This document shows, one piece after another, positions 7,705 through 53,238 of a stretch of DNA of 64,000 nucleotides (the stretch's first letter is position 1; the number at the start of each line of letters is the position of its first letter). The stretch comes from Halothiobacillaceae bacterium UBA5861 (lineage in GTDB: Bacteria; Pseudomonadota; Gammaproteobacteria; UBA5861). The stretch covers positions 320,766 through 384,765 of the forward strand of contig DJFX01000047.1 of NCBI GenBank assembly GCA_002432635.1. The letters are read 5' to 3'. Under the pieces are notes generated by a model. It was not told the origin of the DNA and did no database searches. It was given only the letters and a program-made list of their open reading frames with translations. The translations under genes were made by a program, and so were the position numbers.

Positions 7705-7720
7705 CCTTGTACACATGCTT

Positions 7721-36861: not shown

Positions 36862-37104
36862 ACATATCTCCTAGTTAAGGCTCCTTTTGGGGCCGTAAGT
36901 GTTTTATCTTTATTTGAAGCAAATGAGCCTGGATAAGGTATCTGCTTTATTTAAATGTCAGCGACACCATAGTGCCGAACCAAGGGTCATGAGGATTATG
37001 AAAATGGATCGAGGGCCGCCTCGTTTAGTTTCGCTAAACAGGCTTATTTTAACGTAGTTTCATTTGTTTTTTCAGACACACTGCCTCCTCAACTGAGTAA
37101 ACCT

Positions 37105-37130
37105 GCCAAAAAAAGCCGTATACGGCCCTG
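37105..37130 (-). terminator. putative intrinsic terminator for the MFS gene (palindrome gccgtatacggc followed by TTTTTTT on the minus strand)
   Basis: GC stem plus 7-U tract 13 nt after the stop codon. Confidence 0.4.
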
Positions 37131-37142
37131 AAAACCACTCAT

Positions 37143-38336
37143 TTAAATATGAGCCGAAGCAATGACCGCCCCCTTTTGCTGTATCCGGTAAAAGTAAAGC
37201 ACTGCAAATAAGGACAAAATCAGAAATGGCAGGCTCGCCCATTGAATAGCCGCCCAACCAAAATGATGCATAACAATCCCAGAACCCAGTGAGCCAATCG
37301 CTTGAAATGTAAATATCCCAAAATCATTCATAGCCTGAACTTTAAAGCGCTCCTGAGGTAAGTAAGTTTGAGTCAGTAGCATCGTCGCCCCTAAAAAGAG
37401 AAAATTCCAGCCAACTCCAAGCAAAACCAATGCCCACCAATAGCTGTGAAGATCGTGCCCGCTGAGTGCAAAAGCCACTGTTCCCATATTCAGCAACACA
37501 CCCATCAAAAGGATACGGTGCAAGCCCACCCAGGCGATTAAATATCCTGTAAATAATGACGGAATAAACATAGCCAAAACATGGCTTTGAATCACCCACG
37601 TCGTATCCGACATGGAATGCTGATCAATCAGATGCATACTGAGCGGCGTCGCTGTCATAATGAAACTCATCACCGCATAAGCCGTCACACCCGAACATAA
37701 CGCAACCAGCACCACGGGCTGTCTAAAAATATCCACCAAGGATCGACCAGGCTCCTCGACAACTGCCGTCGATACCTGAACATTCCGGTAAAAACATAAA
37801 ACAACCGATGCCAGCAACAGGATCACGGCAAGCGCCACAAAAGAACCCGTATACAGACCATAAGGCAACCAGTCGCTCGTTGCCTTTGCCACAGCAGGCC
37901 CCAAATACGCAGCCACAATGCCACCGGCCAATACCCAGCCGATGGCCTTGCTCGCGTTTTCGGGCGTCACACTCTCGGCTGCCGCAAACCGGTACTGCTG
38001 AATAAATGCCAGTTTAGTACCTAAAAAAAAGGTGGCGAGTACCAACAACCAAAAGTTGTGACTGGCAATGGAAAAGGCCGCCATCAGTGCCGCGCACATA
38101 GCAACCAGCGCAGCACTGACGAAACCGACTCGTCGACCAAACCGCCCCATCAACAAGGCGGCAGGCACCGTTGCCACAGCCGTACCAACAATCATAGTGG
38201 AGACGGGGAGCGTCGCCAATGCTGGTGTTGGCGCAAGTTCGGTTCCGATGATGCCACCCAGCAAAATAACCACCGGCGCAGTTGCCATCGCCAACGATTG
38301 AGCGAGCATCAAAACAGGGATATTCGCAGGTTTCAT
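37143..38336 (-). CDS. major facilitator superfamily transporter
   Basis: 397 aa, 12 predicted TM helices, MFS-type motif GRFGRR after TM2. Confidence 0.75.
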   Translation of the reverse strand: MKPANIPVLMLAQSLAMATAPVVILLGGIIGTELAPTPALATLPVSTMIVGTAVATVPAALLMGRFGRRVGFVSAALVAMCAALMAAFSIASHNFWLLVLATFFLGTKLAFIQQYRFAAAESVTPENASKAIGWVLAGGIVAAYLGPAVAKATSDWLPYGLYTGSFVALAVILLLASVVLCFYRNVQVSTAVVEEPGRSLVDIFRQPVVLVALCSGVTAYAVMSFIMTATPLSMHLIDQHSMSDTTWVIQSHVLAMFIPSLFTGYLIAWVGLHRILLMGVLLNMGTVAFALSGHDLHSYWWALVLLGVGWNFLFLGATMLLTQTYLPQERFKVQAMNDFGIFTFQAIGSLGSGIVMHHFGWAAIQWASLPFLILSLFAVLYFYRIQQKGAVIASAHI

Positions 38337-38386
38337 AGAAACTCCTCACTTTCCCCAAGGCGTCAACCAGGGGCGCAGTATTATTT

Positions 38387-39070
38387 TTAGATCGTTAATG
38401 CGATTTTATCAGGCAACTGCCAGTTAACAGGTTGCTGGCCATGGGCCTGGAGGTAAGCGTTTGTTTGGGAAAAGTGCCGACACCCCAGAAACCCCCGGTG
38501 CGCCGATAGAGGAGAAGGGTGTGCACACTTCAACACCAAGTGCTTATCGGGATCAATATGCTGCCCTTTTTTTTGTGCGTAACTACCCCACAGTAAAAAA
38601 ACCAATCTTTCTCGGCTTTCGCTCAATTGCTGAATGGCATAGTCCGTGAATAACTCCCAGCCTTTGCCCTGGTGCGCACCTGCGCGCCCCTTTTCGACAG
38701 TTAATACCGCATTCAACAAAAACACACCTTGCTCAGCCCAAGGAATAAGGCAGCCATGATGAGGAGGCGCAATGCCAAGGTCACTCTGAATTTCTTTAAA
38801 AATATTGATGAGCGAGGGTGGTGGCGGAACATTAGGCAAAACAGAAAAACACAAACCATGCGCCTGACCAGGCCCATGGTATGGATCTTGACCTAGAATC
38901 ACCACTTTTACCTGATTAAAAGGCGTGGTATTGAATGCCGAAAAATACTGCTCTCCGGGGGGATAAATGACGGCCCCGCTTTTTTTTCGTTCCAGAAGAA
39001 ATTGTCGCAGCTCCTGCATATAAGCCGACTGAAATTGACTTTGCATCACCGCAAGCCACGAGGGCTCCAT
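38387..39070 (-). CDS. ung: uracil-DNA glycosylase
   Basis: [18 protein letters not shown] catalytic motif and HPSPLSA C-terminal motif; start at internal Met (MEPSWL) aligning with the E. coli Ung N-terminus. Confidence 0.9.
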
Positions 39071-39201
39071 CTGCACTGTACGACCCTTATCCATTCATTG
39101 CGACTCTTTCACTTGCCTGAAAGACTATCATTAATATACCTTCACGGTTTTGTTCTTAGCCGACTCAATGGCTTAAGCTATGGCATCTTACTATTGATTT
39201 A

Positions 39202-41361
39202 ATGAAAAAAACGCTTTTTATCACCGCATGTTGGCTACTTCTGACTAACAGCCTCTCAGCCGATACGCAGTGTTCAAATGAAAATATTTCGCAAGGTAAT
39301 ACCGACAGTATTCACCTTTTGCCCGAAGAAACAACTCGTATTTCCTCGGACTACCTGCTATTCGACGGCAGCAGCAGCTTCAAACTCGAAGGCAACGTCA
39401 ACGTTCTTGACGCAGATAAGCAGCTGTTTTCCAATCAGGCACGCTACGATAAAGCCGCACAAACCATTACCGCGAGTGGCGCGATCCGCTTTCAAACGAC
39501 AGACCTTACCGTGCTCGGTGAGCAGGCAGAACTGAACCTTGAGCGTGAAACGTTCACCATTGACAGCGCAAGCTACCAATACACCACGACCGTCCAAACT
39601 GCTCAGGGCCGCGCACAGCGTGTGATGCGAACAGGCTATGGCGTGCTTAAACTCACCGATGCAACGTACTCCAGCTGTCCCCCTGAAAATGAGAGCTGGC
39701 GCATCGAAGCATCAGAGGTCAACCTAGACACCGCAGCCCAAGCAGGCTCAGCGAAGCACATCAAACTGTATTTTCAAGATACCCCTTTTTTCTACTTTCC
39801 CTGGTTTGGCTTCCCGCTCGGCGATCAGCGTAAAACCGGTTTTCTTGCCCCCAGTGTGGGTTACAGCACTCGGCACGGAGCCGATATCGCCGCTCCCTGG
39901 TACTGGAACATCGCACCCACGGCAGACGCCACGTTCATACCTCGGTACCTGGAAGATCGCGGTTTACATCTTGACACGGAGCTTCGCCACCTCAATCAAG
40001 CAGGGCTGTGGGCCCTGAATACCGGTTATATTGATGATAACGAACAATCACAGGAGCGAAAATTTGCCCGCCTGCGTCAGACAGGCCAGTTTGGCTCTCG
40101 CTGGGAAACCGCCATTGATGCCAGCTATGCCTCTGACCAAGACTATTTCGATGACTTTGGCGATGAATTTTCAAACTCAGACATTGAGCACCTCCCACGC
40201 CGGGCCAGCCTCAAGTATCAAGGCGATCACACCGACTTTAGCCTGCTGGCACAAGGACACCAGACACTGGATCCAGACACGCCGATCACCGACCGCCCTT
40301 ACCGCCAGCTCCCCAAAATCAACTTGAATGCCTACTCCGACCGAGACACAGACACCCTGCAATATCGCATCAACACTGAGTGGACACGCTTTGACCGTGA
40401 TGAGTCCGTAACAGGTGACCGCGTTCTTCTGCAACCCCGGCTTTCCTGGCCTCATAAGCAGCCCGGCTGGTTTGTCATACCCTCGACCAGCCTTTGGCAT
40501 AGCCAATATCAGCTCGACAACCAAATGTCGGGGATAGAAGCCTCTCCCAGCGTCACGACCCCTGTTTTTTCTCTGGACAGCGGCCTGTTTTTTGATAGAA
40601 ACCTGAAAAATGGTGGATTGCACACCCTGGAACCTCGGCTTTATTACCTCTTCGCGGCCCATGAAGACCAAAACGACATCCCTGACTTTGATACCAGCCT
40701 GAATAGCTTCGGTTTCAACCAGCTTTTTCGGGAAAACCGATTCTCAGGGTATGATCGAATGGGCGATGCCAACCAGATAGCCTTGGCTCTGACAACCCGG
40801 GTTTTATCACCCCTGGGCCAAGAACAACTCACCCTTTCGCTGGGACGATTGTTTTACCTCCGTGACAGAAAGGTCACCTTACCCGAAGACGCCATCGAAA
40901 CATCTGAAATGTCGAGCCTGGCCTTTCAAGGCTTTTACCACGTCGCACCCCAATGGCGACTCGAGAACGACCTGCTCTGGGACCCCAAAACCGAGCGCAC
41001 TGAGCTTAGCAGTGCGTCGCTTCGTTACCAAAACAAGCAGAATGATTCGCGGTTTTGGCTGGCCCACCGTTACCGCCCAGAAGAAACCGAACGGGACGAA
41101 ATCGAACAGTTAGAGGCCGAATTCCTCTGGCCGGTTACCGGCCGCCTCTCGCTTTCTGCTAAAGCACTTTATGCTGTGCGAAGTCGCGAAACCATCGACC
41201 AAATGGCAGGGGTTCAGTATGATAGCTGCTGCTGGGCATTGAGGCTTTCCGCCCGCAAAAAAATAGACGAAAACAACGAAGAGCAGGAAGCCTATTACCT
41301 CGAATGGGTGCTCAAAGGGCTGACATCACTGGGTGAAAGTGCCGGCAGATTATTTGAATAA
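39202..41361 (+). CDS. lptD: LPS-assembly outer membrane protein LptD
   Basis: 719 aa, signal peptide, OstA-like N-terminal domain and large beta-barrel; followed by surA-pdxA as in the conserved operon. Confidence 0.9.
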   Translation: MKKTLFITACWLLLTNSLSADTQCSNENISQGNTDSIHLLPEETTRISSDYLLFDGSSSFKLEGNVNVLDADKQLFSNQARYDKAAQTITASGAIRFQTTDLTVLGEQAELNLERETFTIDSASYQYTTTVQTAQGRAQRVMRTGYGVLKLTDATYSSCPPENESWRIEASEVNLDTAAQAGSAKHIKLYFQDTPFFYFPWFGFPLGDQRKTGFLAPSVGYSTRHGADIAAPWYWNIAPTADATFIPRYLEDRGLHLDTELRHLNQAGLWALNTGYIDDNEQSQERKFARLRQTGQFGSRWETAIDASYASDQDYFDDFGDEFSNSDIEHLPRRASLKYQGDHTDFSLLAQGHQTLDPDTPITDRPYRQLPKINLNAYSDRDTDTLQYRINTEWTRFDRDESVTGDRVLLQPRLSWPHKQPGWFVIPSTSLWHSQYQLDNQMSGIEASPSVTTPVFSLDSGLFFDRNLKNGGLHTLEPRLYYLFAAHEDQNDIPDFDTSLNSFGFNQLFRENRFSGYDRMGDANQIALALTTRVLSPLGQEQLTLSLGRLFYLRDRKVTLPEDAIETSEMSSLAFQGFYHVAPQWRLENDLLWDPKTERTELSSASLRYQNKQNDSRFWLAHRYRPEETERDEIEQLEAEFLWPVTGRLSLSAKALYAVRSRETIDQMAGVQYDSCCWALRLSARKKIDENNEEQEAYYLEWVLKGLTSLGESAGRLFE

Positions 41362-41397
41362 CATCACTCCCAATATTATGGAGTCTTAGATACAACC

Positions 41398-42714
41398 ATG
41401 ATGACACGCTTTATTGCAATCACACTTGCTTGCACGTTAGTGACACTCACCCATACAACACACGCAGCAATAACTTCCCTGCAAGGGGAGCGCCTGTTAA
41501 ACAGGATTGTTGCTGTCGTCAATGACGATATCATTTTGCTTAGCGAGCTGAATGCAGAAATATCATCACAGAGAAAACGTGCCAACGAACGTGGTCAGAG
41601 ACTCCCGCCTGAGAACCGTTTCAGGCAGCAGATTCTCGACTACCTGATTCTACAAACACTGCAAAAACAAGTGGCCAGAAAACAAGGCATCCGCATTGAT
41701 GATGCCGCACTCAACCGTTCGCTACAACGAATTGCACAACAAAATCAGCAGTCACTCGATGAGTTTAGGCAAGCGCTGCTTGCAAGCGGCTATGATTACC
41801 TCAAATTCAGAGAAGATATCCGAACAGAGATGCTTATTGCCCGTGTTCGGCGTCAGGAAGTTGTTGCCAAAGTGACCGTCTCTGATCAAGAAGTCAACGA
41901 TTTCCTCGAGCGTGAGAAGCCTACAGAAGAAAATGCTACCAGCTACCACCTGTTTCACATCCTCATTGCAGTTCCCGAGGCCTCCAGCCCCGAAGCCATT
42001 CAACGTGCTCGAGAAAAAGCCGACAACCTGGTCCGTGAATTTGAGGCCGGTAGTGACTTTTCCAGCCTGGCACTGGCCTACTCCGATGGCAATAATGCCT
42101 TGGAAGGCGGAGATCTGGGCTGGCGCTCACTCGAACAAATCCCCTCGCTGTTTACCGATATCGTGGGCAACATGAAAGTGGGTGATATTACTCAACCCAT
42201 CCGCAGCCCCAACGGATTTCACCTCTTGCATTTAAGTGACAAAAAAGGTGCGGATAAATTACTGATCAACCAGACCAAAGCGCGACACATTTTATTAAAA
42301 GTCACCGCTGTTAGAAACGAGGAGCAGACCCGAAACAAACTGCTTGAGTTGCGCGAACGCATTCTTGCCGGGGAACCTTTCGCGGACATAGCCCGGGCTC
42401 ATTCCGAAGATACCGCCAGTGCCGTGGATGGTGGCGACTTACCCTGGTTTGGATCAGGAGAAATGGTCGAAGTATTCGAAGATGTCGCCGAAAGCTTATC
42501 CGTCCACGAAGTCAGTGACGCCTTTCGATCAACCTTCGGCTGGCACATCCTTGAAGTGTTGGGGAGGCGCACCCACGACGCCACGGAAGAACAACAACGC
42601 TTACAAGTAAAACGAGCGCTGCAACGGCAAAAAGTCGAAGAAGAAACGGACTTTTGGTTACAACGGCTCAAAGGCGAGGCCTATATTGAATACCGACTGG
42701 ACGAAAACACCTGA
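41398..42714 (+). CDS. surA: periplasmic chaperone / peptidyl-prolyl isomerase SurA
   Basis: 438 aa, signal peptide, two parvulin domains (GGDLGW repeated). Confidence 0.9.
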
Positions 42715-42724
42715 TGACAGCCCC

Positions 42725-43714
42725 ATGTCTATCACGCCACGCATTGCAATAACCCCTGGCGAACCTGCTGGCATTGGTCCGGAGCTCGCCGTCCAGCTCA
42801 TACAAAAAGACTGGCCGGCCCAAATCGTCTGGGTAGTCGACCCCCAACTGCTACAAGCGCGTGCCGAACAGCTCCACTTGCCCATACAAATCACTTCGTA
42901 CCAACCTCATACCCCGGTGACTCCATCAAAAGCGGGCACAGCTCTCGTCCTGCCTGTTCCGCTCGCCGCACCCTCAATACCAGCAAAACTCGACACACAA
43001 AACGCAGATTACGTCCTGCAAACACTCCGCATTGCGACTCAAGGCTGTTTGGACAACACCTTTTCGGCACTTGTGACCGGACCCGTGCATAAAGGCATTA
43101 TTAACGATGCTGGCACGCCTTTTTCAGGCCATACCGAATTTCTGGCAGAGCTCACCCATGCCTGGCCTGTCATGATGTTGGCAGCCGGAGACCTGCGAGT
43201 TGCGCTGGTCACCACCCATCTGCCTCTGGCTGACGTAGCCAGACAAATCACCCCATCTCGGTTATCACGAGTGATTCGAATCTTGCACAAGGACCTCCGC
43301 GAAAAATTCGCCTTGGACAATCCACGTATCCTGGTTTGTGGCCTCAACCCCCATGCTGGGGAAAACGGGCACCTGGGCCGGGAAGAAATAGACATCATCA
43401 TCCCTATACTGAAACAGCTCAAAGACGCAGGCATGAACCTTGTAGGGCCCTTACCGGCAGATACCTTATTTACTCCAGCCAACCTGGCCAACGCCGATGC
43501 GGTGCTCGCCATGTACCATGACCAGGGGTTACCGGTTCTTAAACATATCGGCTTTGGCAATGCGATTAATATTACCTTGGGATTACCAATCATCCGTACC
43601 TCAGTAGACCACGGCGTTGCACTGGATTTAGCCGGCACAGGCAAAGCGGACAGTGGCAGTTTTAACGCAGCACTCGAACTCGCCTGTCAGATGGCACACA
43701 AATATGATCTATGA
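42725..43714 (+). CDS. pdxA: 4-hydroxythreonine-4-phosphate dehydrogenase
   Basis: [14 protein letters not shown]-terminus and [15 protein letters not shown] motifs matching E. coli PdxA; start at internal Met after the surA stop. Confidence 0.9.
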
Positions 43715-43837
43715 AGAACTCAGTGCTGAGTGTTCTCAATTACGTCATTATTAACGCTATGATGACCGCAAAGTCAGCCAGCGAATCCTGTACCTTACGT
43801 TATTGATCTTACGTGCCCTTATCTACGAGTGAGTGCC

Positions 43838-44977
43838 ATGCTACCCCAACAACCCCAAGCCCTTTCCGATACGTTCGTGCGGCCCGCAAGCTGGGCGGAT
43901 TTGGACGCCTTGGTCAAAATCGAACAGCGTTGTTTCGAAACCGATCGCCTCTCGCGGCGCAGTTTCCGCCACTTTCTCAAGCGCGGGAAAGGTACGCTTT
44001 TAGTCTACGATGCCGGTGACGGCCCCATCGGCTATGCCTTGGTCCATTTCCACGCCGGCACCGCGCTGGCGCGCCTGTATTCCTTCGCCGTGCTGCCCGA
44101 AGCCCAAGGCCGGGGCGTGGGTCGATTGCTGCTTGAGGCAGCGGAAGGCGCCTCCCGCGAACACGGTTGCCTGGCCATCCGGCTGGAGATCCGCCGGGAC
44201 AACGAGAAAGCCAAAGCGCTGTACTCAAGCGCCGGTTATCGCGACCTGGAGCAACTAGAGGACTACTACGAAGATCACGAAGACGCGGTGCGGATGGAAA
44301 AGTCGTTGGCGCCCCAGCCCGACCGCGGTGTCACCCGAGTGCCCTACTATGCCCAAACCCTGGAGTTCACCTGCGGGCCGGCCTCGCTCATGATGGCGAT
44401 GAAAAGCCTTAACCCGGATCTGCCGCTGAACCGCAAACTGGAACTGCAAATCTGGCGAGAAGCCACCACCATATTCATGACCTCGGGCCTGGGAGGCTGT
44501 GGCCCCGATGGTTTGGCGCTGGCTGCGCACCGTCGGGGGTACGAGGTCGAGTTGATCCTGAAAGACGAACAAGCCTTGTTTGTCGATTCGGTCCGTTCGG
44601 CCGAAAAGAAGGAGGTCATCGCCCAGGTGCATGAAGACTTCAAGGAACAGATTCTCTCCGCCGACATCACGGTGCGCTACGGTGCAGTGCGGGTGGACGA
44701 GTTGGAAATGGCGATTCGGGAGGGTGCCGTGCCGGTGGTCCTGATCAGCTCCTATCGGCTTTACGGCGAAAAAACCCCGCACTGGGTGGTGGTCACCGAT
44801 GTGGCCGATGGGATCGTCTATCTCCACGAGCCCTACGTCGATTACGAGGAAAACCGAACGCCCATGGACTGCATGAACGTGCCGATTTTGAGCGAAGAGT
44901 TCGAAGGCATGGCCCGTTACGGACGCAGCGGTCAACGCGCCGTGGTCATCCTGAAGCGGCACGGAACGCACGTATGA
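43838..44977 (+). CDS. fusion protein: RimI-like GNAT N-acetyltransferase + papain-like (peptidase C39-like) cysteine peptidase domain
   Basis: GNAT motif AQGRGVGRLLL; C-terminal domain with Cys motif TCGPASLMMAM and His motif HWVVVTDV typical of C39-type peptidases. Confidence 0.7.
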   Translation: MLPQQPQALSDTFVRPASWADLDALVKIEQRCFETDRLSRRSFRHFLKRGKGTLLVYDAGDGPIGYALVHFHAGTALARLYSFAVLPEAQGRGVGRLLLEAAEGASREHGCLAIRLEIRRDNEKAKALYSSAGYRDLEQLEDYYEDHEDAVRMEKSLAPQPDRGVTRVPYYAQTLEFTCGPASLMMAMKSLNPDLPLNRKLELQIWREATTIFMTSGLGGCGPDGLALAAHRRGYEVELILKDEQALFVDSVRSAEKKEVIAQVHEDFKEQILSADITVRYGAVRVDELEMAIREGAVPVVLISSYRLYGEKTPHWVVVTDVADGIVYLHEPYVDYEENRTPMDCMNVPILSEEFEGMARYGRSGQRAVVILKRHGTHV

Positions 44978-46452
44978 GTCGTCACGTTGTGGTCGTCGAC
45001 CAACCCGCCGAATGGCAAGATGACTTGCCCGAGAGCCTGTTGCTGAGCGCCCGCGACTATATCGCAGGTCAGGATTTCGGGACCAATCCCACAGTCAAAG
45101 TGATCAACCTCTGCCGCAGCTATCGCTATCTCGGCGTGGGCTACTACGTCTCGCTCCTGGCGGAGGCCCGCCGTCACCGGGTGATTCCCTCGGTGCGGAC
45201 CATGCTCGATCTATCGCGCAAAACCATCTACCAGTTGGTCACTGAAGAACTCGACGAGGACCTGGCGCGGCATCTAAAGCGGAACCAGGAAGACCAGATC
45301 GACTTCGTCATGTATTTCGGTTACACGCAGCAAGCCGATTTACAGCCGCTGGCCAATGTCCTGTTCGACCGCTTCCCGACGCCGATTCTCCACGTGCAAC
45401 TGCGTCGCAGCGGCAAATGGCAAATTCACAAGATCACGACCCGGGGACCGGCTGATATCACGGCGGATGAGCGCAGCACCCTCACCGACGCCCTCAACAG
45501 CTATCTGGGTAAACGGTGGCGCGCGCCCAAAGCCCGTGCCGTGTCCCGTTACGACCTGGCGATCCTTCACAACCCGGAGGATACCCTCTCGCCCTCCAAC
45601 CCCAAGGCGCTGCAATCGTTCATCCGCGCCGGAAAACGGCTGGGCGTGGACGTGGACCTGATTACCCGGCGGGACTATCCGCAAATCGCCGAGTGGGATG
45701 CCTTGTTCATCCGGGAGACCACCAGTATCAACCACCACACGTTCCGCTTCGCCAAACGGGCCGAAGCCGAAGGCATGGTGGTCATCGATGACCCCACGTC
45801 CATTCTTCGATGCACCAACAAAGTCTACTTGGCCGAGCTGCTCCGTACCCATCGGGTGGGCACACCCCGAACCGTCGTGTTACAGCGCGATCGGTCCACT
45901 GCGGAAATCGAAAAGCTGGGATATCCGGTGGTGCTGAAAATTCCGGACGGCGCGTTTTCGCTGGGTGTATACAAGGCCAATACGCCGGCGGAATTCGACG
46001 AGATCGCCACGCGTTTGTTCAAAAAATCGGACCTGATTTTGGCCCAGGAATTCCTCCGCAGCGAGTTCGACTGGCGAGTGGGGATTTTAGGCGGAAAACC
46101 GCTGTTCGCCTGCCAATATTTCATGTCACGCGGACACTGGCAGATCTACCAACACAAGGCTGATGGCCGGTTCGTCGAAGGTGAGGCCCGGACCCTGGCG
46201 GTGGAAGACGCACCGAAAGATGTCATTCAGACCGCGCTAAAAGCCGCCAATTTGATCGGTGACGGCCTCTATGGCGTCGACCTCAAGCAAACCGACCGGG
46301 GGGTGTTCGTCATTGAGGTCAACGACAACCCCAACCTGGACGTGGGTGTGGAAGATTTGGTGCTGAAGGACCGCTTGTACCAGATGGTGATCGAAGAATT
46401 CGTCCGCCGGCTGGACCGACAGCAGGAAAAAGCGGCTCGGCGTTTCACATAA
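44974..46452 (+). CDS. RimK-type ATP-grasp ligase with ~190 aa N-terminal extension (RimK-like ATP-grasp N-terminal, RLAN-like domain)
   Basis: C-terminal ATP-grasp motifs (YPVVLKIPDGAFSLGV, LAQEFL, VDLK..VIEVNDNP); ATGA start/stop overlap with the upstream gene. Confidence 0.75.
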   Translation: MSRHVVVVDQPAEWQDDLPESLLLSARDYIAGQDFGTNPTVKVINLCRSYRYLGVGYYVSLLAEARRHRVIPSVRTMLDLSRKTIYQLVTEELDEDLARHLKRNQEDQIDFVMYFGYTQQADLQPLANVLFDRFPTPILHVQLRRSGKWQIHKITTRGPADITADERSTLTDALNSYLGKRWRAPKARAVSRYDLAILHNPEDTLSPSNPKALQSFIRAGKRLGVDVDLITRRDYPQIAEWDALFIRETTSINHHTFRFAKRAEAEGMVVIDDPTSILRCTNKVYLAELLRTHRVGTPRTVVLQRDRSTAEIEKLGYPVVLKIPDGAFSLGVYKANTPAEFDEIATRLFKKSDLILAQEFLRSEFDWRVGILGGKPLFACQYFMSRGHWQIYQHKADGRFVEGEARTLAVEDAPKDVIQTALKAANLIGDGLYGVDLKQTDRGVFVIEVNDNPNLDVGVEDLVLKDRLYQMVIEEFVRRLDRQQEKAARRFT

Positions 46453-46818
46453 AATAAACGCCAGATACCATCTTCCTCATTCCCTATAGAAACATAATAG
46501 GAACATAGCCGACCATCACTCCGGCTAGTGATACCGCCCCTCATCGCGGTTGTTGGTTTCAATGGCATGCGCTCGCCACACCCTTCTCGATCATATTGGC
46601 TTTCATCATTCAAACCACCTCGAGCTATCATGCCTCACAAGGCCAGCCGACCAAATTAAGTGAACAATTTCATACATGAAGCTGTGCATTTTTTGCATAC
46701 CTTAAGTGCGAAACTAGCAGGAGACAACGGCACCGAAAGCTCTTTATGATCAGAACTCAAGGCATTTCCCATCGGCCACAACCTAAACACGATCCTGCAA
46801 ACCACGAGGGCTGAGTTC

Positions 46819-47946
46819 ATGACCACCAAAAAGCGATTATCTCGACGATCCTTCCTAAAAAACAGTGCCGGCGTTGCTGGTATGGTTGCATTCAGCAGCA
46901 GCTTGCTACCCAGACTGGCACAGGCAAAAGATTTAACCGTTGGTTTCATTTATGTGGGTGCAAAAGACGACTACGGCTATAACCAATCGCATGCAGAAGG
47001 TGCCGCTGCGATCAAAAAACTAGGCGGCATCACCGTCGTTGAAGAAGAGAATGTCCCCGAATCGGTTGAAGTGCTTAAAACCATGGAAAGCATGATCAAC
47101 TTTGATAGCGTTGACCTCTTGTTTCCAACCTCCTTTGGTTATTTTGATCCATTTGTTTTGCAGCTGGCGTCCAAATACAAAGACCTCCGGTTTGAACACT
47201 GTGGTGGCCTGTGGAGCCCTGAGCACCCAAAAAATGTCGGCTCTTATTTTGGTTACATTGGCATGGGGCAATATTTAAATGGCATCGCTGCAGGCCATGC
47301 CAGCAAGAGTAAGAAAATCGGTTTCGTTGCCGCAAAACCCATTCCTCAAGTGTTGTTAAACATCAACTCCTTCTTGCTCGGAGCCCGTTCAGTCGACCCC
47401 AGCATTACCTGCCAGGTCATTTTCACGGGAGAATGGTCACTCGCCGTCAAAGAAGCTGAAGCGACCAACGCCTTGATTGACCAGGGTGCAGACGTCATTA
47501 CCTGCCACGTTGATGGTCCTAAAGTGGTCATCGAAACAGCAGCAGGTCGCGGAGCTTATGTCTGTGGTTATCACGCTAACCAAAGCACCCTCGCACCAGA
47601 AAAATACCTGACAGGAGCTGAGTGGAACTGGGCAAATGTTTACACCAATATGGTTCAAACCGTCCAGGCCGGTAATACGATCCCTAACTTTCATCGTGGC
47701 GGACTGGCAGAGGGGTTTATCAAAATGAGTCCACTGGGTCCGGCTGTTTCCGACACGGCCAGGAAGCAATTTGAAGAAACCCAAGCGAAAATCCTTAAAG
47801 GAAACTATGCGGTCATTCAAGGTCCCATGAAAGACAACAAAGGCAACCTGATTGCCAAGGCAGGCGAATCATTTGTCGAAACAGATGTCGCACTGGAAAG
47901 CATGGACTATCTGGTAGAAGGCGTTATTGGTTCCACGTCTTCCTAA
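46819..47946 (+). CDS. BMP-family (basic membrane protein/PnrA-Med-like) ABC transporter substrate-binding protein with twin-arginine signal
   Basis: Tat motif SRRSFLK, signal ending AQA; BMP-family fold motifs. Confidence 0.8.
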   Translation: MTTKKRLSRRSFLKNSAGVAGMVAFSSSLLPRLAQAKDLTVGFIYVGAKDDYGYNQSHAEGAAAIKKLGGITVVEEENVPESVEVLKTMESMINFDSVDLLFPTSFGYFDPFVLQLASKYKDLRFEHCGGLWSPEHPKNVGSYFGYIGMGQYLNGIAAGHASKSKKIGFVAAKPIPQVLLNINSFLLGARSVDPSITCQVIFTGEWSLAVKEAEATNALIDQGADVITCHVDGPKVVIETAAGRGAYVCGYHANQSTLAPEKYLTGAEWNWANVYTNMVQTVQAGNTIPNFHRGGLAEGFIKMSPLGPAVSDTARKQFEETQAKILKGNYAVIQGPMKDNKGNLIAKAGESFVETDVALESMDYLVEGVIGSTSS

Positions 47947-47964
47947 CTGAACGAGCACGCCATA

Positions 47965-49065
47965 ATGCCGCTTGACAGTCCCCTGCTCCAGCACCTGGCT
48001 CGACGCTCAGAGGCGATCGCCATTCCTCTCATCGCACTGGCGGCAGGTTTTATTTTGTTTGCCCTCTTTTTACTGCTCCAGGGACAATCACCCGCGAACT
48101 ATTTTGCGCTTGTCTACAAGGCCGGTTTTGGTACAGCCTTTTCCTGGCAGAATACGCTCACACGGGCGTCCCCTCTCATCCTGGCAGCTTTGTGCGTCGC
48201 GCTCCCGGCGCGTCTAGGCCTGATTGTTATTGGTGGTGAGGGCGCGATTGTGCTTGGCGGTGTCGCAGCCAGTGCATTCGCCATGTTTTTTCCAGGCGCC
48301 ACAGGTCTTGTCGGGCTTTTATTGATGGGGGCCAGTGCTGCCGCAATGGGGGCACTCTGGATTGGGCTGATTGGTCTGATGCGATACGGGCGCGGCGTTA
48401 ACGAAACCATTTCCAGCCTCTTGATGGCCTACATTGGTGTGGCGCTCATGAATCATCTGGTCGAGGGCCCACTGCGAGATCCCAGCAGCTTGAATAAACC
48501 GGCGACGTACCCGCTGTCTGCTGAACAACGGTTGGGGAGCCTTCCAGGCCTGGATATCCACTGGGGCCTTGTAATCGGGATCGTCAGCTGTTTTCTGGTG
48601 TGGATTTTGATGACCTATACGCGCTGGGGATTCTCTGCACGCGTTGCCGGGGGTAATGTACGCGCTGCACAAGTCCAAGGCTTACCGGTTGGCATACTGA
48701 TCGTTGGCTTTACGGCTTTAGGTGGCGCCTTTGCTGGCCTTGCTGGCATGGTAGAAGTGGCTGCCGTACACGGCACTGCAAATGCTTCGTTGGCGTCAGG
48801 CTACGGTTACACCGGAATACTGGTTGCCTTTCTGGCGCGACACAATCCACTGGTTATTATCCCTGTTGCCGTTCTACTCGGTGGGTTCGAGGCCGCTAAT
48901 GGCCTTGTGCAACGGCGCATGGATTTACCCGATGCGACTGTTCTGGTTCTACAGGGTTTTGTCTTTATTTCCATCCTCATCAGCGAAACACTCTACGGCC
49001 GTATTCGCCTGTTTAACCCGGAACATTGGAAAATAACACCGGCAACCATGAGAGAAAACTCATGA
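47965..49065 (+). CDS. ABC transporter permease (BMP-type, YufP-like)
   Basis: 366 aa polytopic membrane protein directly downstream of the BMP binding protein. Confidence 0.8.
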   Translation: MPLDSPLLQHLARRSEAIAIPLIALAAGFILFALFLLLQGQSPANYFALVYKAGFGTAFSWQNTLTRASPLILAALCVALPARLGLIVIGGEGAIVLGGVAASAFAMFFPGATGLVGLLLMGASAAAMGALWIGLIGLMRYGRGVNETISSLLMAYIGVALMNHLVEGPLRDPSSLNKPATYPLSAEQRLGSLPGLDIHWGLVIGIVSCFLVWILMTYTRWGFSARVAGGNVRAAQVQGLPVGILIVGFTALGGAFAGLAGMVEVAAVHGTANASLASGYGYTGILVAFLARHNPLVIIPVAVLLGGFEAANGLVQRRMDLPDATVLVLQGFVFISILISETLYGRIRLFNPEHWKITPATMRENS

Positions 49066-49985
49066 CAACTGACATTGGACTCTGGGGCGTGCCTCTCGCA
49101 ATTATCGGCGGCGCCATTCGTGTTTCAACACCGTTTTTATTCGTGAGCCTGGGCGAGTGCTTAACTGAACGTTCAGGCCGTATTAATCTTGGATTAGAAG
49201 GCACACTCGTCTTTGGCGCCATGTCTGGCTATGCTACCGCTTACCTCACCGGGTCACCCTGGCTGGGCGTGCTTGCGGCGGCTATCTGTGGCTTTGGCTT
49301 TGGGCTGGTACATGGGTGGATATGCGCTCTTCCACGGGTTAATGATATCGCCGTTGGAATAGCTCTGATGCTATTTGGCATGGGCCTGGCTTTTTTCTTT
49401 GGCAAACCCTTTATTCAACCTGTCGCGCCAGACCTGCCAACTATTAACCTGGGGGCCTGGTCAGACATCCCCCAAATCCAGGCTGCGTTAAAAATCAATG
49501 TGTTATTTATTATTGGTATTGTACTGGCCGTCACCATGGCCTGGATGTTTCGCAACACTCAACTGGGCCTGACCATTCGAGTCGTGGGCGATAGCGATGC
49601 TGCAGCTCGTGCCATGGGTTTAAAAACGAATAGGATACGTTTTCTCAGCACAGCGTGTGGAGGGGCTTTAGCAGGTATCGGCGGTGCCTACCTGTCTCTT
49701 TACTACCCCGGCAGCTGGAACGAAGGCTTATCTTCCGGCCAGGGCTTAATGGCCGTAGCACTGGTGATCTTTGCTCGCTGGAACCCACTGAACTGTTTCT
49801 GGGCGGCCCTTTTATTCGGTGGTGCAGGTGCGTTAGGCCCGGCACTCCAGTCCATTGGCATCACCCAGGGGTATTATCTTTTTTATGCCGCACCTTACGT
49901 TTTGACCTTGGCGTTATTAATTGCAACCAGCTCACCTTCGAAAGCACTCACCGGCGCTCCCGGTGCGCTGAGCATTACCCGTTAG
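49062..49985 (+). CDS. ABC transporter permease (BMP-type, YufQ-like)
   Basis: Internal start MTTDIGLWG overlapping the upstream stop (ATGA); polytopic. Confidence 0.8.
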   Translation: MTTDIGLWGVPLAIIGGAIRVSTPFLFVSLGECLTERSGRINLGLEGTLVFGAMSGYATAYLTGSPWLGVLAAAICGFGFGLVHGWICALPRVNDIAVGIALMLFGMGLAFFFGKPFIQPVAPDLPTINLGAWSDIPQIQAALKINVLFIIGIVLAVTMAWMFRNTQLGLTIRVVGDSDAAARAMGLKTNRIRFLSTACGGALAGIGGAYLSLYYPGSWNEGLSSGQGLMAVALVIFARWNPLNCFWAALLFGGAGALGPALQSIGITQGYYLFYAAPYVLTLALLIATSSPSKALTGAPGALSITR

Positions 49986-49994
49986 GAGCTTTTT

Positions 49995-50672
49995 ATGACA
50001 ACGATTAACGCGGATCCTTACCATTGGCCTTACAACGGTGACTTAAAACCCGAAAATACCGCTCTGATCATAATCGATATGCAAACCGATTTTTGCGGGT
50101 TGGGCGGTTATGTTGACAGCATGGGGTACGATCTTGAATTAACCCGAGCCCCAATCGAACCCATCCAATCGGTGCTGAGCCACATGCGGGCCAAGGGCTA
50201 TCACATCTTACATACCCGGGAAGGGCACCGGCCGGACTTATCGGATTTGCCTGACAACAAGCGCTGGCGTTCACAGCAGGTGGGTATCGGCATTGGCGAT
50301 GCTGGCCCCTGCGGAAAAGTACTCGTGAGGGGCGAGCCCGGCTGGGAGATCATCAATGAACTCCGCCCGGAACCCGGTGAAGTGATTATCGACAAGCCAG
50401 GCAAAGGTAGCTTCTATGCCACAGACTTGGAACTGATCTTACACACTCGCGGCATTCAGAACATTATCCTCACAGGCATCACAACAGACGTTTGTGTTCA
50501 CACCACCATGCGCGAAGCCAATGACCGGGGATTTGAATGCCTTATTCTTGAGGACTGTTGTGGCGCAACCGATCAGGGCAACCATCACGCGGCCATCCAC
50601 ATGATCAAAATGCAAGGCGGTGTTTTTGGCAGTGTGTCCAACAGCCAGTCCATACTCAATGAGCTGCCCTGA
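49995..50672 (+). CDS. isochorismatase-family (cysteine) hydrolase, RutB/BiuH/CSHase-like amidohydrolase
   Basis: Catalytic Asp region [11 protein letters not shown] and Cys motif [20 protein letters not shown]. Confidence 0.8.
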
Positions 50673-50679
50673 GCCACCC

Positions 50680-52230
50680 ATGACGCATATCGAAAAGAAG
50701 ACCCACAGCGCGATTGGCATTGAAGTCATTGGAATGACAATGCGCTTTGGGAGCTTCACCGCTTTGAACCAGGTGTCCCTGAAAATTCCCCCCGGTCACT
50801 TCCATGCGCTGCTGGGAGAGAATGGCGCAGGAAAATCAACTCTGGTGAAGTGCATGATGGGTTTTTATCAGGCCACCGAGGGAGAAATCATCGTCAACGG
50901 CCGCCAAGCCGAAATCCTCGCACCGCAAGATGCGCATGCATTGGGCCTTGGTATGGTCTACCAGCACTTTACCCTGGCACCGTCCCTCACCGCCGCTGAA
51001 AATCTGCTGGTTAGCCGGCGTGATGCTTCTACCGTTATCCATTGGTCACAGGAAAAACAAAAACTGACCGATTTCTTGGGCACGATGCCCTTTACTGTTC
51101 CCCTGGAACGGAAGGTTTACGCACTCTCAGCCGGCGAAAAACAAAAACTGGAAATACTCAAACAACTGTATCTCGGCTGCCATTTTTTAATTTTGGACGA
51201 ACCCACCTCTGTGCTCACATTATCGGAAGCCGACGAAGTGCTGGGCCTGATACGCCAGTTATGCCAAGCAGGCCAAATTACGGCCTTGATGATTTCCCAC
51301 AAGTTTCGCGAAGTCACCACCTATGCCGACGAGGTGACCATCTTGCGCAAAGGGGAACGGGTTGGGCAGGGCCAAACGTCTCAACTCTCAGTTGCTGAAA
51401 TGGCAACCATGATGGTGGGTAAACCCGTTACCCAAAACATTTATGAGCGCCAGCCACACACACCTGTCCCCGTGCTCTCACTGGAAAATATCTGTTGTGA
51501 AGATCGCAGTGGCCTGAAAAGCATAGAAATCGACTCACTCAACGTGTGTGCAGGCGAAATTGTCGGCGTTGCAGGCGTCTCTGGCAATGGCCAGGTCGAG
51601 TTGATGGAGGTGCTCACGGGTCAGCGCTCACTGCAAGCCGGTGGTATTTATGTCCAGGGTGAACCTTTTCGAGCCACACGCGAGGAAGCCTTTAAACACA
51701 ATGTACGTTTTCTCCCAGAGGAACCGCTACATAATGCCTGCGTTTCGGGCATGTCCGTCAAAGAAAATATTGCGCTCCGGGATTTCGACAGAGATCCCCA
51801 GCAAAAACGCTTATTCTGGCTTAAAAAGCGCTTGATGCGCTCACGATCAGCCCAGCTGGTGACGGATTTCAATGTTAAAACAACCTCACTGGACACACCC
51901 ATTGAGTCTCTCTCTGGGGGCAATATACAGCGCGCCGTTCTCGCCCGGGAACTCACAGGCAAAGTTGACTTGCTCATCATCTCCAACCCCTGTTTCGGCT
52001 TGGACTTTTCAGCCGTTGCGGATATCCGTGACCGCATTATGCAGGCCCGCAACGCGGGTGCCGCCGTTTTACTCATCAGCGAAGACCTCGATGAAATTAT
52101 GGAGTTATCAGATCGGGTACTGGTGATGTCTGAAGGCCAAATCACTTATGAAAGCCCGATTGAACAGACAACGCTTGAACAGATTGGTCAGCACATGGCC
52201 GGCCACAGGACAACCGCATGGATAAACTAA
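50680..52230 (+). CDS. ABC transporter ATP-binding protein with duplicated NBD (BMP/sugar-type double ATPase)
   Basis: First Walker [10 protein letters not shown] and second NBD with LSGGNIQR signature; start at MTHIEKK after the upstream stop. Confidence 0.85.
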
Positions 52231-52889
52231 CGATTCAGGCCAGGCCTCACGCCTTTAGCTACCAGCCGAACACATCTGCGCTGATCGTCATTGACATGCA
52301 ACGTGACTTTATTGACTCCGGTGGATTTGGAGAGAGCCTGGGGAATGATGTTTCCCGGCTGCAAAAAATCATTCCCGCAGTGAAACGGCTGATCAACGGT
52401 TTCCGGGGCGTTGGCATCACGATCATCCACACCCGGGAATGCCATTTACCAGACTTATCTGACTGCCCGGACGCAAAACGTTACCGGGGTAACCCCGGTC
52501 TTCGAATCGGCGACCCAGGCCCCATGGGACGCTTGCTGGTAAAAGGTGAACCGGGCGTTGAAATTATCCCAGCACTTGCACCCATCCCCGGTGAAAAAGT
52601 CATCGACAAACCTGGAAAAGGGGCTTTCTACCACACGGACCTGCAAGAGTTTTTACAAGACCAACACATCGAGACCTTGTTTTTTGCCGGGGTTACCACC
52701 GAAGTGTGTGTTCAATCAACCATGCGGGAGGCTAATGACCGGGGCTACTTCTGTCTGTTAGCGCGTGATGCAACAGAAAGCTACTTTGACGTCTTCAAAC
52801 AAACAACCATCGACATGATTGAAGCCCAAGGCGCCATTGTGGGATGGACCGCCACAGTCGATGACATTTTGACTTCTTTTCATGCTTAA
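52218..52889 (+). CDS. isochorismatase-family hydrolase, paralog of 49995-50672
   Basis: [11 protein letters not shown] and [20 protein letters not shown]; same Cys-PGK(G) spacing as the paralog. Confidence 0.8.
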
Positions 52890-53238
52890 GCCAGGTATTT
52901 TTCAAACACTACTCAGCGAGGGCTGGAAACAGCACCGTTTCGAACCCTTTCACGAAGGTGTACAAATCTGCACTTTGTGGGCAGAAGAAACCACGCTGGC
53001 GCTCCTCAAGTACGAGCCGGGGGCCTCAGTCCCCCGCCACCGCCATACCGGGACTGAGCTGATTCTCGTGCTAGAAGGCTCACAAAGCGACGAACATGCG
53101 ACTTATCCGAAAGGGAGTGTCATCCTCAACCCGGCGGGTTCAGAACACTCGGTTTGGTCTGAGCAGGGTTGTGTTATTTTAATTCACTGGGAAAAGCCGG
53201 TCGAGTTCATCAACGCTTGTGATGAAACATTTAAATGA
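52882..53238 (+). CDS. cupin-domain protein (ChrR-like cupin)
   Basis: 118 aa; His-containing cupin motifs [16 protein letters not shown] and GSEHSV. Confidence 0.5.

Follow-up and report, generated by a model that had tools for sequence, protein, structure and literature searches.

A two-gene cassette encoding a GNAT-DUF3335 fusion and an RLAN-ATP-grasp ligase, of very probable foreign origin, behind pdxA

A two-gene cassette lying directly behind pdxA in the 64-kb stretch of DNA analysed here (the window) was almost certainly acquired horizontally from a lineage with a GC content of about 59%. Its first gene encodes a RimI-like GNAT acetyltransferase fused to a papain-fold DUF3335 domain, and its second a RimK-type ATP-grasp ligase with an N-terminal RLAN domain. 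By its domain matches the pair is a member of a known family, already named by Pfam and by NCBI, where the products go under 'RimK family protein' and 'GNAT family N-acetyltransferase/peptidase C39 family protein'. The best overall explanation of the cassette, held at slightly short of even confidence, is that of an imported module which would make and turn over a small N-acetylated glutamyl peptide. The features of the locus are as follows.

42686-43714, + strand: pdxA, last gene of lptD-surA-pdxA, directly upstream (TIGR00557, 421 bits against a cutoff of 290)
43829-46444, + strand: transferred segment, with little beyond the two ORFs (95.6-95.8% identity over 2616 bp to L008/L009; GC)
43829-44027, + strand: older 5' mosaic block, surviving as a decayed stub in L012 (stub alignment)
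43838-44977, + strand: gene 1, 379 aa, RimI-like GNAT fused to DUF3335, C39-like cysteine peptidase (Pfam)
43904-44308, + strand: GNAT domain, aa 23-157 (PF00583, E=2e-16)
44339-44956, + strand: DUF3335 papain-fold domain, aa 168-373 (PF11814, E=5e-86)
44974-46452, + strand: gene 2, 492 aa, RLAN and RimK-type ATP-grasp ligase (Pfam)
45049-45489, + strand: RLAN domain, aa 26-172 (PF14401, E=2e-48; 164.2 bits against a gathering threshold of 25)
45607-46338, + strand: ATP-grasp catalytic core, aa 212-455 (TIGR00768 alignment)
46445-46455, + strand: right-junction 11 bp TCACATAAAAT, unlike both L008/L009 and L012 (alignment)
46533-46560, + strand: terminator-like hairpin in host DNA 3' of the cassette (pattern scan; same sequence in L012)

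The two ORFs overlap by ATGA at 44974-44977, as can be seen directly in the sequence, and the translational coupling proposed in the earlier note is thereby confirmed. Gene 1 may start at GTG 43829 or ATG 43838 and ends at 44977 on the + strand. Upstream of the cassette lie ung (on the - strand), lptD, surA and pdxA, and downstream, as had been noted, an unrelated ABC operon, which encodes a BMP-type transporter with biuret amidohydrolase. A pattern scan found no + strand terminator-like site between pdxA and gene 1, and the position of the cassette between pdxA and the terminator-like hairpin of the operon makes read-through from lptD-surA-pdxA possible. The pdxA gene is followed by rsmA and apaG in Vibrio and by rsmA in Fluviibacter and Dechloromonas; tblastn gave no match to rsmA or apaG across the whole window, in line with the absence of these genes reported earlier. 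A displacement of rsmA-apaG-apaH by the cassette is nevertheless ruled out, since in the sister MAG L012, which lacks the full cassette and keeps only a stub of gene 1, pdxA likewise leads directly to the ABC operon; L013, with a pdxA locus 65% identical, also has no rsmA downstream.

The GC content of 43829-46452 is 0.596, as against 0.495 in the rest of the window, and tops that of every same-length window (mean 0.500, sd 0.030, about 3.2 sd). In a 500-bp profile it climbs from about 43750, takes values of 0.576-0.628 inside the cassette, and is about 0.50 again by 46250-46750; the jump across both genes that had first drawn attention to them is thus borne out, although it reaches about 60% and not 'well above 60%'. 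GC3 of the two genes (0.737 and 0.740) stands at z≈5 relative to the 45 other ORFs of the window (0.522±0.043), the highest of which reaches 0.611, and in synonymous codon use, compared with the flanks as the note had suggested, the same two genes are the top two deviants among 47. If the pair were native and vertically inherited, its GC richness would have to stem from amino-acid composition or expression level, a reading with which the somewhat raised GC1 (0.63-0.67 versus 0.57) and the high conservation of the proteins are compatible. However, the excess sits at synonymous third positions, GC2 is the same as that of the host, and the comparative evidence that follows makes a native origin scarcely credible.

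At the DNA level the segment shares 95.7% identity with a copy in L008, a genome of 59% GC where it stands in an unrelated context, and a copy is also present in L009. Homology to both ends at the ORF ends, the flanks being unrelated, and in L008 the genes are compositionally native, with GC3 values of 0.729 and 0.741 equal to those of their neighbours (0.724±0.025). The GC of the cassette is close to flank GC, and so follows the host, in five relatives, and the pair turns up in other genomes each time in different surroundings (its neighbourhood differs in every relative examined). L012 (GC 0.499), finally, is colinear on both sides of the cassette, at 92% and 90% identity, and lacks 44028-46455. 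Deviant composition and codon use, a near-identical copy elsewhere and absence from a colinear relative together uphold the foreign origin that had been proposed. The transferred unit consists of two ORFs with no third; at its right end the junction 11 bp give a new stop codon and two added residues (..RRFT*). There is no tRNA in the window, there are no flanking repeats, no mobile-element genes occur within ±10 kb of the cassette, and the plasmid matches to it are chromids or chromosome-like records. With dN/dS of 0.13 for gene 1 and 0.10 for gene 2 against the L008 alleles, the cassette is kept under purifying selection across both genes.

The left end of the cassette has a history of its own. 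L012 keeps a decayed 200-bp stub of gene 1, and over the corresponding 5' block the window differs from L008 by 25 mismatches per 200 bp, versus 90 in the remaining 2416 bp (Fisher p=8e-7), with dS of 0.42 in the block and 0.125 in the rest (synonymous-site p=6e-4); dS between host genes of the window and L012 is 0.30. The step in divergence, at 44011-44028, coincides with the end of the stub. The simplest reading of this mosaic, which from 200 bp and one sister genome we consider rather probable, is that an earlier copy was lost and that the window lineage later took up the cassette again. Recombination anchored in the stub would have brought back the younger 2.4-kb part, starting where the stub ends, and on the right side an illegitimate join would have been made at the stop codon of gene 2. 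Alternatively, there may have been one old insertion before the split of the window and L012 lineages, with 44028-46455 later deleted in L012 and, independently, most of the window cassette either exchanged for an L008-like allele through homologous recombination or evolving more slowly beyond the first 63 codons. The left junction and the upstream host sequence are indeed common to the window and L012, family members vary at the very N-terminus of gene 1, and the pairwise distances of the stub are additive in either scenario. Such a history is nonetheless rather unlikely: the recombination breakpoint and the deletion endpoint would need to match within about 16 bp, and the synonymous divergence of the 5' block is raised 3-fold, including at the protein-conserved codons 14-63. 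A cassette apparently lost and regained at the same site would be a clean small example of homology-anchored re-acquisition, of mainly evolutionary interest.

The matches of gene 1 to PF00583 and PF11814 bear out the proposed fusion of a RimI-like GNAT to a C39-like papain fold, and this fusion is retained in more than 5000 homologues. Membership of DUF3335 is indicated both by a full-length match and by the Gln/Cys/His/Asp set: in the family alignment Q173, C179 and H315 are invariant and the Asp near-invariant, the predicted catalytic codons being those of Cys179 (44372-44374) and His315 (44780-44782). In the GNAT domain G93 and G95 are near-invariant (at least 90%) and Y134 is invariant. 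Gene 1 is not a true peptidase C39, as it has no PF03412 match and scores 20.1 bits on Peptidase_C39_2, below the cutoff of 24; a bacteriocin-type C39 role was also rejected, the fusion partner being a GNAT and not a transporter and no linked precursor or exporter having been found. Neither is it RimI proper, given 85.7 bits on TIGR01575, just under the cutoff of 86.4, and the fused peptidase. The best PDB sequence matches of the GNAT are N-alpha-acetyltransferases (Ard1 4pv6, RimI 2cnm), and the structural neighbours of DUF3335 include the small-peptide and isopeptide cutters PeiR and Alr0975 alongside double-glycine leader peptidases and UFM1/ubiquitin-type proteases.

Gene 2 is, as had been claimed, a RimK-type ATP-grasp enzyme with an N-terminal extra domain of about 190 aa, which proves to be RLAN. 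Its RimK match (PF08443) covers aa 282-456 at 41.2 bits versus a threshold of 21, PDB RimK 7qys aligns to aa 239-475 (E=9e-12), and none of K322, D436, E448 and N450, which are the conserved residues for nucleotide and Mg binding, varies among 42 sequences. The N-terminal RLAN, the C-terminal ATP-grasp and the association with a GNAT place it in the RLAN/RimK-like family (PF14401 and PF08443). That it might be an ordinary RimK, the plain S6 ligase without N-terminal domain that the note had weighed against its own view, is contradicted by the RLAN match, by scores below both cutoffs (38.8 bits against 331 on the S6-glutamate ligase equivalog PRK10446; 82.6 against 143.4 on NCBIfam rimK_fam TIGR00768) and by a length of 492 aa compared with about 300 aa. 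The predicted fold of RLAN is a trimmed ATP-grasp-like one, with the RiPP ATP-grasp ligases CdnC, PsnB and MdnC among its fold matches. On this prediction RLAN resembles an incomplete, degenerate duplicate of the ATP-grasp without catalytic function, and its probable role is in docking the substrate or in assembly.

Clustered at 50% identity, the ligases with an RLAN domain make up about 1000 groups; they are found in alpha- and gammaproteobacteria, among them Pseudomonas aeruginosa, Legionella, Azospirillum and Thioalkalivibrio, with protein identity of about 55% between the two classes. P. aeruginosa has this family besides a canonical RimK, and its member is, by our own assignment from gene neighbourhood, PA1345. 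A GNAT adjoins the ligase in 62 of 70 informative metagenome loci; the C39-like domain is present in 38 of these 70, and 28 have the ligase and GNAT alone. Hence, of the triad of ligase, acetyltransferase and peptidase that had been put forward, the link between the first two stands, but the peptidase is no obligatory third. Single-chain GNAT-RLAN-ATP-grasp fusions also occur (P0326, P0365, P0384). DUF2817, an M14/aspartoacylase-like domain with weak Pfam matches to M14 zinc carboxypeptidase and related to AstE/AspA, adjoins in 10 of 80 loci, usually together with the peptidase domain. GNAT and ligase appear to form the core of the system, and the hydrolases DUF3335 and DUF2817 would be interchangeable accessories. 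Neither a linked candidate substrate gene nor a conserved small ORF or transporter beside the pair was found in about 90 loci. An RLAN-RimK-like ATP-grasp with a GNAT/papain-like peptidase neighbourhood was reportedly predicted by Iyer, Abhiman, Burroughs and Aravind in Mol Biosyst in 2009, the paper cited as reference 16 of PMC4431377; the window pair has the same architecture, adjacency and coupling, with strong Pfam scores, and is a member. What is added here to the known family is the GNAT as constant partner, the DUF2817 accessory and the ATP-grasp-like fold prediction for RLAN. Full-text literature searches found no experimental work on the family, its product or a phenotype, in agreement with the earlier statement that no member has an experimentally defined product.

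The co-occurrence of ATP-grasp, GNAT and C39 peptidase in microviridin clusters, as given in the literature, and the presence of CdnC, PsnB and MdnC among the RLAN fold matches bring to mind a graspetide-like RiPP, in which the ATP-grasp would cross-link a precursor, the C39-like domain cut its leader and the GNAT acetylate the new N-terminus. But Pfam, NCBIfam and PDB matches all class the catalytic ATP-grasp as RimK-type, there is no third ORF in the transferred segment to encode a precursor, the surveyed loci share no small ORF or transporter, and the identity between alpha- and gammaproteobacterial proteins is atypical of RiPP tailoring enzymes. Membership of a graspetide cluster is therefore rejected, and a graspetide-like role is highly improbable.

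All three activities, ligase, GNAT and peptidase, are predicted with good confidence to be catalytically competent. The ligase of gene 2 would convert a carboxylate to an acyl-phosphate and then add an amino acid. The most likely one is L-glutamate, since it is what the characterised enzymes of the RimK family add, a specificity carried over here from relatives that share about 25% identity. The gene 1 GNAT would acetylate a free alpha-amino group, and the papain-fold domain, with its complete catalytic set, would hydrolyse an amide bond of the product or of a precursor. As the GNAT is constant and the hydrolases are interchangeable, we propose that a small N-acetylated glutamyl peptide is made and turned over; as only two ORFs were transferred, its substrate must be already present in any host. 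The small N-acetyl-peptide as product is itself a guarded suggestion, against which it counts that the GNAT is closest to the protein N-terminal acetyltransferases RimI and Ard1/Naa. C39-like and papain-fold domains act mostly on proteins or peptides, and RimK modifies a protein, both of which point toward a protein target.

In a protein-modification module the ligase would accordingly add glutamates to a conserved host protein, either at its C-terminus or on a side chain, the GNAT would acetylate a protein N-terminus, and the peptidase or the DUF2817 carboxypeptidase would trim or reverse the modification. Besides the near-cutoff RimI score and the N-alpha-acetyltransferase matches of the GNAT, the RimK enzymes as nearest solved relatives of the ligase, the double-glycine leader peptidases and UFM1/ubiquitin-type proteases near DUF3335 and the M14 matches of DUF2817 agree with this, and a two-gene transfer fits a universally conserved target. 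RimK glutamylates S6, with RimB as protease, RimI acetylates S18, and S6 and S18 form a heterodimer, so that a paralogous ribosome-modifying pair is conceivable. Yet no candidate substrate gene is linked in the surveyed loci, the GNAT-ligase fusions and the dispensable peptidase resemble a two-step biosynthetic pair, the ligase falls far below the S6-glutamate ligase cutoff, and the loss of the cassette in the sister lineage shows that no essential ribosomal function depends on it. We regard protein modification as rather unlikely.

Several known systems resemble the proposed N-acetylated glutamyl peptide module in part. RimK, with RimB in Pseudomonas, shares the ATP-grasp family (closest structures 7qys, 7qyr, 5zct and 4iwx) and the logic of a ligase with an antagonistic peptidase, but gene 2 is about 25% identical, carries the 190-aa RLAN and is partnered by a GNAT-papain fusion instead of RimA/RimB. 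Tubulin glutamylases with cytosolic carboxypeptidases, like RimK with RimB on S6, are a precedent for the rival protein-modification module. In the mammalian N-acetylaspartate/NAAG cycle, the acetyltransferase NAT8L, the ligases RIMKLA and RIMKLB, which join Glu to N-acetyl-Asp, and aspartoacylase, of the AstE/AspA family, belong to the same superfamilies as the GNAT, RimK-type ligase and DUF2817 of the surveyed loci; the window, however, lacks DUF2817 and has a papain-fold hydrolase instead, and the likeness is at the superfamily level. Ngg combines a GNAT with an ATP-grasp enzyme to produce an N-acetyl dipeptide in NAGGN synthesis, both acting on one small peptide with a peptidase gene in the 'trio', and its single-chain layout is like that of the GNAT-RLAN-ligase fusions. 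The ATP-grasp of gene 2 is nevertheless of another subfamily and the window has no AsnO-type amidotransferase partner; with 22.2 bits against 569 on TIGR03103 and no AsnO and M42 peptidase neighbours, an Ngg/NAGGN synthetase orthologue was rejected. Glutathionylspermidine synthetase/amidase likewise applies a papain-fold (CHAP) amidase and an ATP-dependent ligase to one small metabolite, but with other domain families and no GNAT. Relatives L005-L007 carry a GSP-synthase gene at a distance of 6.7 kb from the cassette, a proximity that is probably incidental.

The move of exactly two ORFs into a new host, where a housekeeping operon can be read through into them and purifying selection has kept them, amounts to a natural experiment. 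It indicates that both genes suffice in the new host and makes the pair a good minimal choice for heterologous expression and for screens of metabolites or protein modifications. What the surveyed loci add is a narrower hypothesis, with GNAT and ligase as the core and the hydrolases as accessories. It is possible, though rather unlikely, that the cassette is the minimal form of an undescribed but widespread bacterial pathway for building up and recycling an N-acetylated (poly)glutamyl peptide, as a bacterial counterpart of the NAA/NAAG cycle, or else a reversible glutamylation-acetylation tag on a conserved protein; in either case RLAN would be a pseudo-ATP-grasp module presenting the substrate to the active ligase.

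The window has a mean GC content of 49.9%, whereas the segment at 43829-46452, just 3' of pdxA, stands at 59.6%, the top value of all same-length windows in a sliding scan and about 3.2 standard deviations above the mean. This segment, the cassette, comprises two genes:

43838-44977, plus strand: gene 1, an ORF with GNAT and C39-like peptidase domains
44974-46452, plus strand: gene 2, an ORF with RLAN and RimK-type ATP-grasp domains, joined to gene 1 by an ATGA overlap

A 500-bp GC profile rises at about 43.75 kb and falls at about 46.3-46.5 kb. The GC3 of the two genes is 0.737 and 0.740 versus 0.522±0.043 for the 45 other ORFs of the window, and they are the most deviant pair among the 47 in synonymous codon usage, their GC2 being unchanged relative to the other ORFs. 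The GC signal of the cassette is concentrated at synonymous sites. Both the overlap, which can be read in the sequence, and the jump in composition across the two genes, which is recovered by the GC scan, GC3 and codon usage alike, had been proposed in the earlier note; the size of the jump, given there as well above 60% GC, was overstated, as local values are 0.58-0.63.

The domain calls made from the sequence for both genes are borne out by Pfam and NCBIfam. Gene 1 combines a GNAT domain, scoring 85.7 bits against the NCBIfam RimI model (cutoff 86.4), with DUF3335 ('Peptidase_C39 like', E=5e-86). Gene 2 combines RLAN (E=2e-48) with a RimK-type ATP-grasp domain that falls under the cutoffs of both the RimK family and S6-ligase models; the presence of RLAN and these missed cutoffs rule out a plain RimK. 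Across homologues Gln173, Cys179 and His315 of the peptidase domain are invariant and Asp331 nearly so; in the GNAT domain Y134 is invariant, with G93 and G95 of the acetyl-CoA loop near-invariant, and K322, D436, E448 and N450 of the ATP-grasp domain are invariant. Judging from these conserved catalytic residues, all three activities, acetyltransferase, peptidase and ligase, look competent. RLAN, in its predicted fold, is probably a degenerate partial copy of the ATP-grasp fold devoid of the catalytic signature. Profile-profile comparison of RLAN with the ATP-grasp domain of the same protein found no similarity (Prob 0.4), and the duplication idea therefore comes from the predicted fold only; a sequence search of the PDB gave no match for either DUF3335 or RLAN. 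Each of the two families is very large: a word-indexed homologue search scored at least 8000 candidates in the case of gene 2 and returned more than 5000 matches for gene 1, and an exhaustive profile search with RLAN only recovered 1028 representatives of 50%-identity clusters. Homologues from Thioalkalivibrio, Ectothiorhodospira, Chromatiales and Xanthomonadaceae are about 55% identical, and those from Azospirillum, Tistrella and P. aeruginosa 51-53%. For a 914-aa ORF that precedes the pair in Azospirillum there is no Pfam match, and the ORF is probably spurious. The dN/dS of 0.10-0.13 for both cassette genes points to purifying selection.

The foreign origin proposed earlier for the cassette is upheld by a near-identical copy in a genome of about 59% GC and by its absence from a colinear sister. 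Over 2616 bp, positions 43829-46444 share 95.6-95.8% identity with two contigs, L008 (GCA_034189865.1) and L009, the homology starting about 9 bp 5' of the ATG and stopping within the donor stop codon, with unrelated flanks on either side. In L008, whose organism is set apart from that of the window by composition alone, the cassette is native in composition (GC 59.6 versus 59.0% for its surroundings; GC3 0.729 and 0.741 versus 0.724±0.025). Cassette GC also follows flank GC in four further relatives, so that the mismatch between cassette and flank is seen in the window only. A sister MAG, L012 (GC 49.9%), retrieved in a genome scan with pdxA, is colinear with 34682-44027 (92% identity) and 46456-53229 (90% identity), and therefore lacks 44028-46455.

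The neighborhood of the pair differs in every relative examined: it lies by a polyamine cluster, by cytochrome c', after MoxR and a TgpA-type transglutaminase, by GGDEF and BrkB genes, by argA and argE, or by APH, BrkB and a circularly permuted ATP-grasp. Near the window copy we found no tRNAs, flanking direct or inverted repeats, or integrase or transposase genes. A plasmid vector was considered and rejected, as the matches are Azospirillum and Tistrella chromids and a P. aeruginosa record with chromosomal genes. A viral vector was likewise rejected: the RimK-like ligases on viral contigs are at most 51% identical to that of the window, and none is close. Seven of the eight viral loci have no RLAN match, and a GNAT gene lies directly 5' of the ligase in four. 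In L102, L105, L106 and L108 (IMG/VR viral contigs, at about 6550-7880) a GNAT is followed by an RLAN-less RimK-like ATP-grasp, the proteins being 26-40% identical to those of the window; this is a phage-borne variant of the GNAT-ligase pairing.

The corresponding site in the sister MAG is not empty. A stub of about 200 bp (L012 9142-9344), homologous to window 43829-44027, persists there with one 3-bp and one 1-bp indel, at 80% identity with the window and 82.5% with L008. Of the mismatches between the window and L008, 25 fall within the first 200 bp, the last of them at 44011, and 90 within the other 2416 bp (Fisher p=8e-7), a divergence of 12.5% in the first ~200 bp (43829-44027) versus 3.7% in 44028-46444. 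Likewise, dS is 0.42 over codons 1-63, as opposed to 0.126 in the rest of gene 1 and 0.124 in gene 2 (p=6e-4). This step coincides with the end of the L012 stub. As host genes of the window and L012 have a dS of 0.30, the bulk of the cassette is younger, and its 5' block older, than the split between these lineages. This suggests that a cassette was lost and then re-acquired, anchored in the stub. An earlier copy would have been truncated in the common ancestor of the two lineages; the window lineage would then have regained the genes from an L008-like donor, with the stub serving as the homologous anchor, and an illegitimate join at 46444 would have closed the far end. At this right junction 11 bp (46445-46455, TCACATAAAAT) have no counterpart in L008/L009 or L012; they take the place of the donor stop codon and add two residues, such that gene 2 ends in ..RRFT* rather than ..RR*. 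The deletion endpoint and the recombination breakpoint may instead coincide by chance, the sample being one sister genome; loss and re-gain in three steps is the most economical reading of the mosaic.

Upstream of the cassette lie ung (minus strand), lptD, surA and pdxA, and downstream a BMP-type ABC operon including a biuret amidohydrolase, which is conserved in L012. The absence of rsmA-apaG-apaH from the window, pointed out in the earlier note, stands, but the cassette is not its cause, since in L012, too, pdxA leads into the ABC operon; L013, a more distant relative, likewise lacks rsmA after pdxA. A terminator-like hairpin begins at 46533 and extends to about 46550-46560 in host DNA 3' of the cassette, and is also present in L012; no terminator-like sites were found on the plus strand between pdxA and gene 1. 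Given this placement, it is plausible that the cassette is transcribed by read-through from lptD-surA-pdxA. The downstream operon (46819-52889, plus an ORF to about 53250) encodes a BMP-family ABC transporter, BiuH (49995-50672; 417.8 bits, cutoff 370), a second isochorismatase-family hydrolase and a cupin, and looks like a cluster for uptake and utilisation of biuret or a related nitrogen compound. Elsewhere in the window AceK (isocitrate dehydrogenase kinase/phosphatase) adjoins isocitrate dehydrogenase (33637-36861, minus strand) in its most AT-rich region (GC 0.42-0.45).

We typed 80 metagenome loci by tblastn with unfiltered ORFs, 70 of which had enough upstream sequence to judge.

Table. 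Acetyltransferase gene beside the ligase gene in 70 metagenome loci
Window-like order, with a co-directional GNAT-C39 fusion gene just 5' of the ligase: 22
Divergently oriented GNAT-C39 fusion gene next to the ligase: 9
Divergently oriented GNAT-C39 fusion gene, separated from the ligase by one gene: 7
GNAT without peptidase domain: 28
No GNAT in reach: 4

A DUF2817 gene (for instance L067 5738-6850, minus strand) is the immediate neighbor of the RLAN ligase in 10 of the 80 loci (L050, L054, L067, L076, L081, L093, L097, L099-L101); seven of the ten have it placed between the ligase and a GNAT-C39 gene of divergent orientation. In Pfam, DUF2817 weakly matches M14 carboxypeptidase and the succinylglutamate desuccinylase/aspartoacylase domain. 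Furthermore, three library proteins (P0326, P0365 and P0384; 636-663 aa) are single-chain GNAT-RLAN-ATP-grasp proteins without a peptidase domain, Rosetta-stone fusions that tie the acetyltransferase to the ligase. Together, the survey and these fusions indicate that the core of the system is GNAT plus ligase and that the hydrolases are accessories.

Other recurrent neighbors (aroE, dapF, DUF484, xerC, DUF155) were set aside as housekeeping synteny. In L002-L007 (e.g. L005 7056-15564), relatives with 73-81% identity, the pair lies by genes for agmatinase, carboxynorspermidine decarboxylase-like and dehydrogenase-like proteins and arginine decarboxylase, with a glutathionylspermidine synthase gene too in L005-L007; this polyamine cluster was dismissed as a functional lead as it does not recur in other lineages. 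In Xanthomonadaceae-like loci (L021 9464-14286; L011 11496-12893; L008 1644-2708) BrkB/YihY, a circularly permuted ATP-grasp, an Alpha-E domain protein and Peptidase_Mx come after the pair and are predicted to form a second peptide-ligase system; close to the pair, BrkB, APH and Peptidase_Mx turn up again on two or three unrelated contigs. The P. aeruginosa record (L018, NZ_CP133752.1, 'plasmid' pZYPA1927), which includes genes typical of a chromosome (ggt, glutamate/aspartate ABC, pagP), has a 529-aa homologue between pagP/SDR and an aminotransferase, with no adjoining GNAT or peptidase. From its neighborhood it was assigned as PA1345, for which an upstream Cpx box has been listed (PMC12802237).

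At the level of sequence, then, the GNAT, papain-fold and ligase modules are catalytically intact, the GNAT and ligase are tightly coupled and the pair is portable. Characterised RimK-family enzymes add L-glutamate, and by analogy the ligase would add L-glutamate to a carboxylate, the GNAT would cap an alpha-amine, and the papain-fold domain, or DUF2817 elsewhere, would hydrolyse the product or its precursor. Precedents are the NAT8L/RIMKLA-B/aspartoacylase cycle and Ngg, whose enzyme superfamilies appear to match those at these loci. On account of this match, the fusions and the dispensable hydrolases, we tentatively favor a small N-acetylated glutamyl peptide as the product. The main rival, reversible modification of a conserved protein, draws on the kinship of the GNAT with RimI and N-alpha-acetyltransferases and on the protein-directed relatives of C39-like domains; we consider it somewhat less likely. 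As the transfer into the window moved two ORFs only, no dedicated precursor gene is needed. A microviridin-type RiPP pathway is unlikely, given a ligase of RimK type, the lack of a precursor gene and the high conservation.

Iyer et al. reportedly predicted the association of RLAN/RimK-like ligases with GNAT/DUF3335 in 2009 by comparative genomics. Mention of this prediction occurs in passages of PMC4431377 (its reference 16) and PMC10318531; the association is already in Pfam, and the proteins are named by NCBI. By its domain architecture the window pair is a bona fide member of it; identification as RimK, RimI, a C39 bacteriocin peptidase or Ngg was rejected on thresholds or defining contexts. 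A literature search, in which few subscription journals were covered, found no experimental characterisation of RLAN, DUF3335, DUF2817, PA1345 or the trio, in keeping with the earlier remark that no member has a defined product. The locus adds one instance of the family and no new kind; worth recording, each on limited data, are the proposed re-gain anchored in the stub, the ATP-grasp-like fold predicted for RLAN and the GNAT-ligase core with swappable hydrolases. As an enzyme system the family is large and genuinely unexplained, and at this locus the pair proves to be a portable, selected unit.
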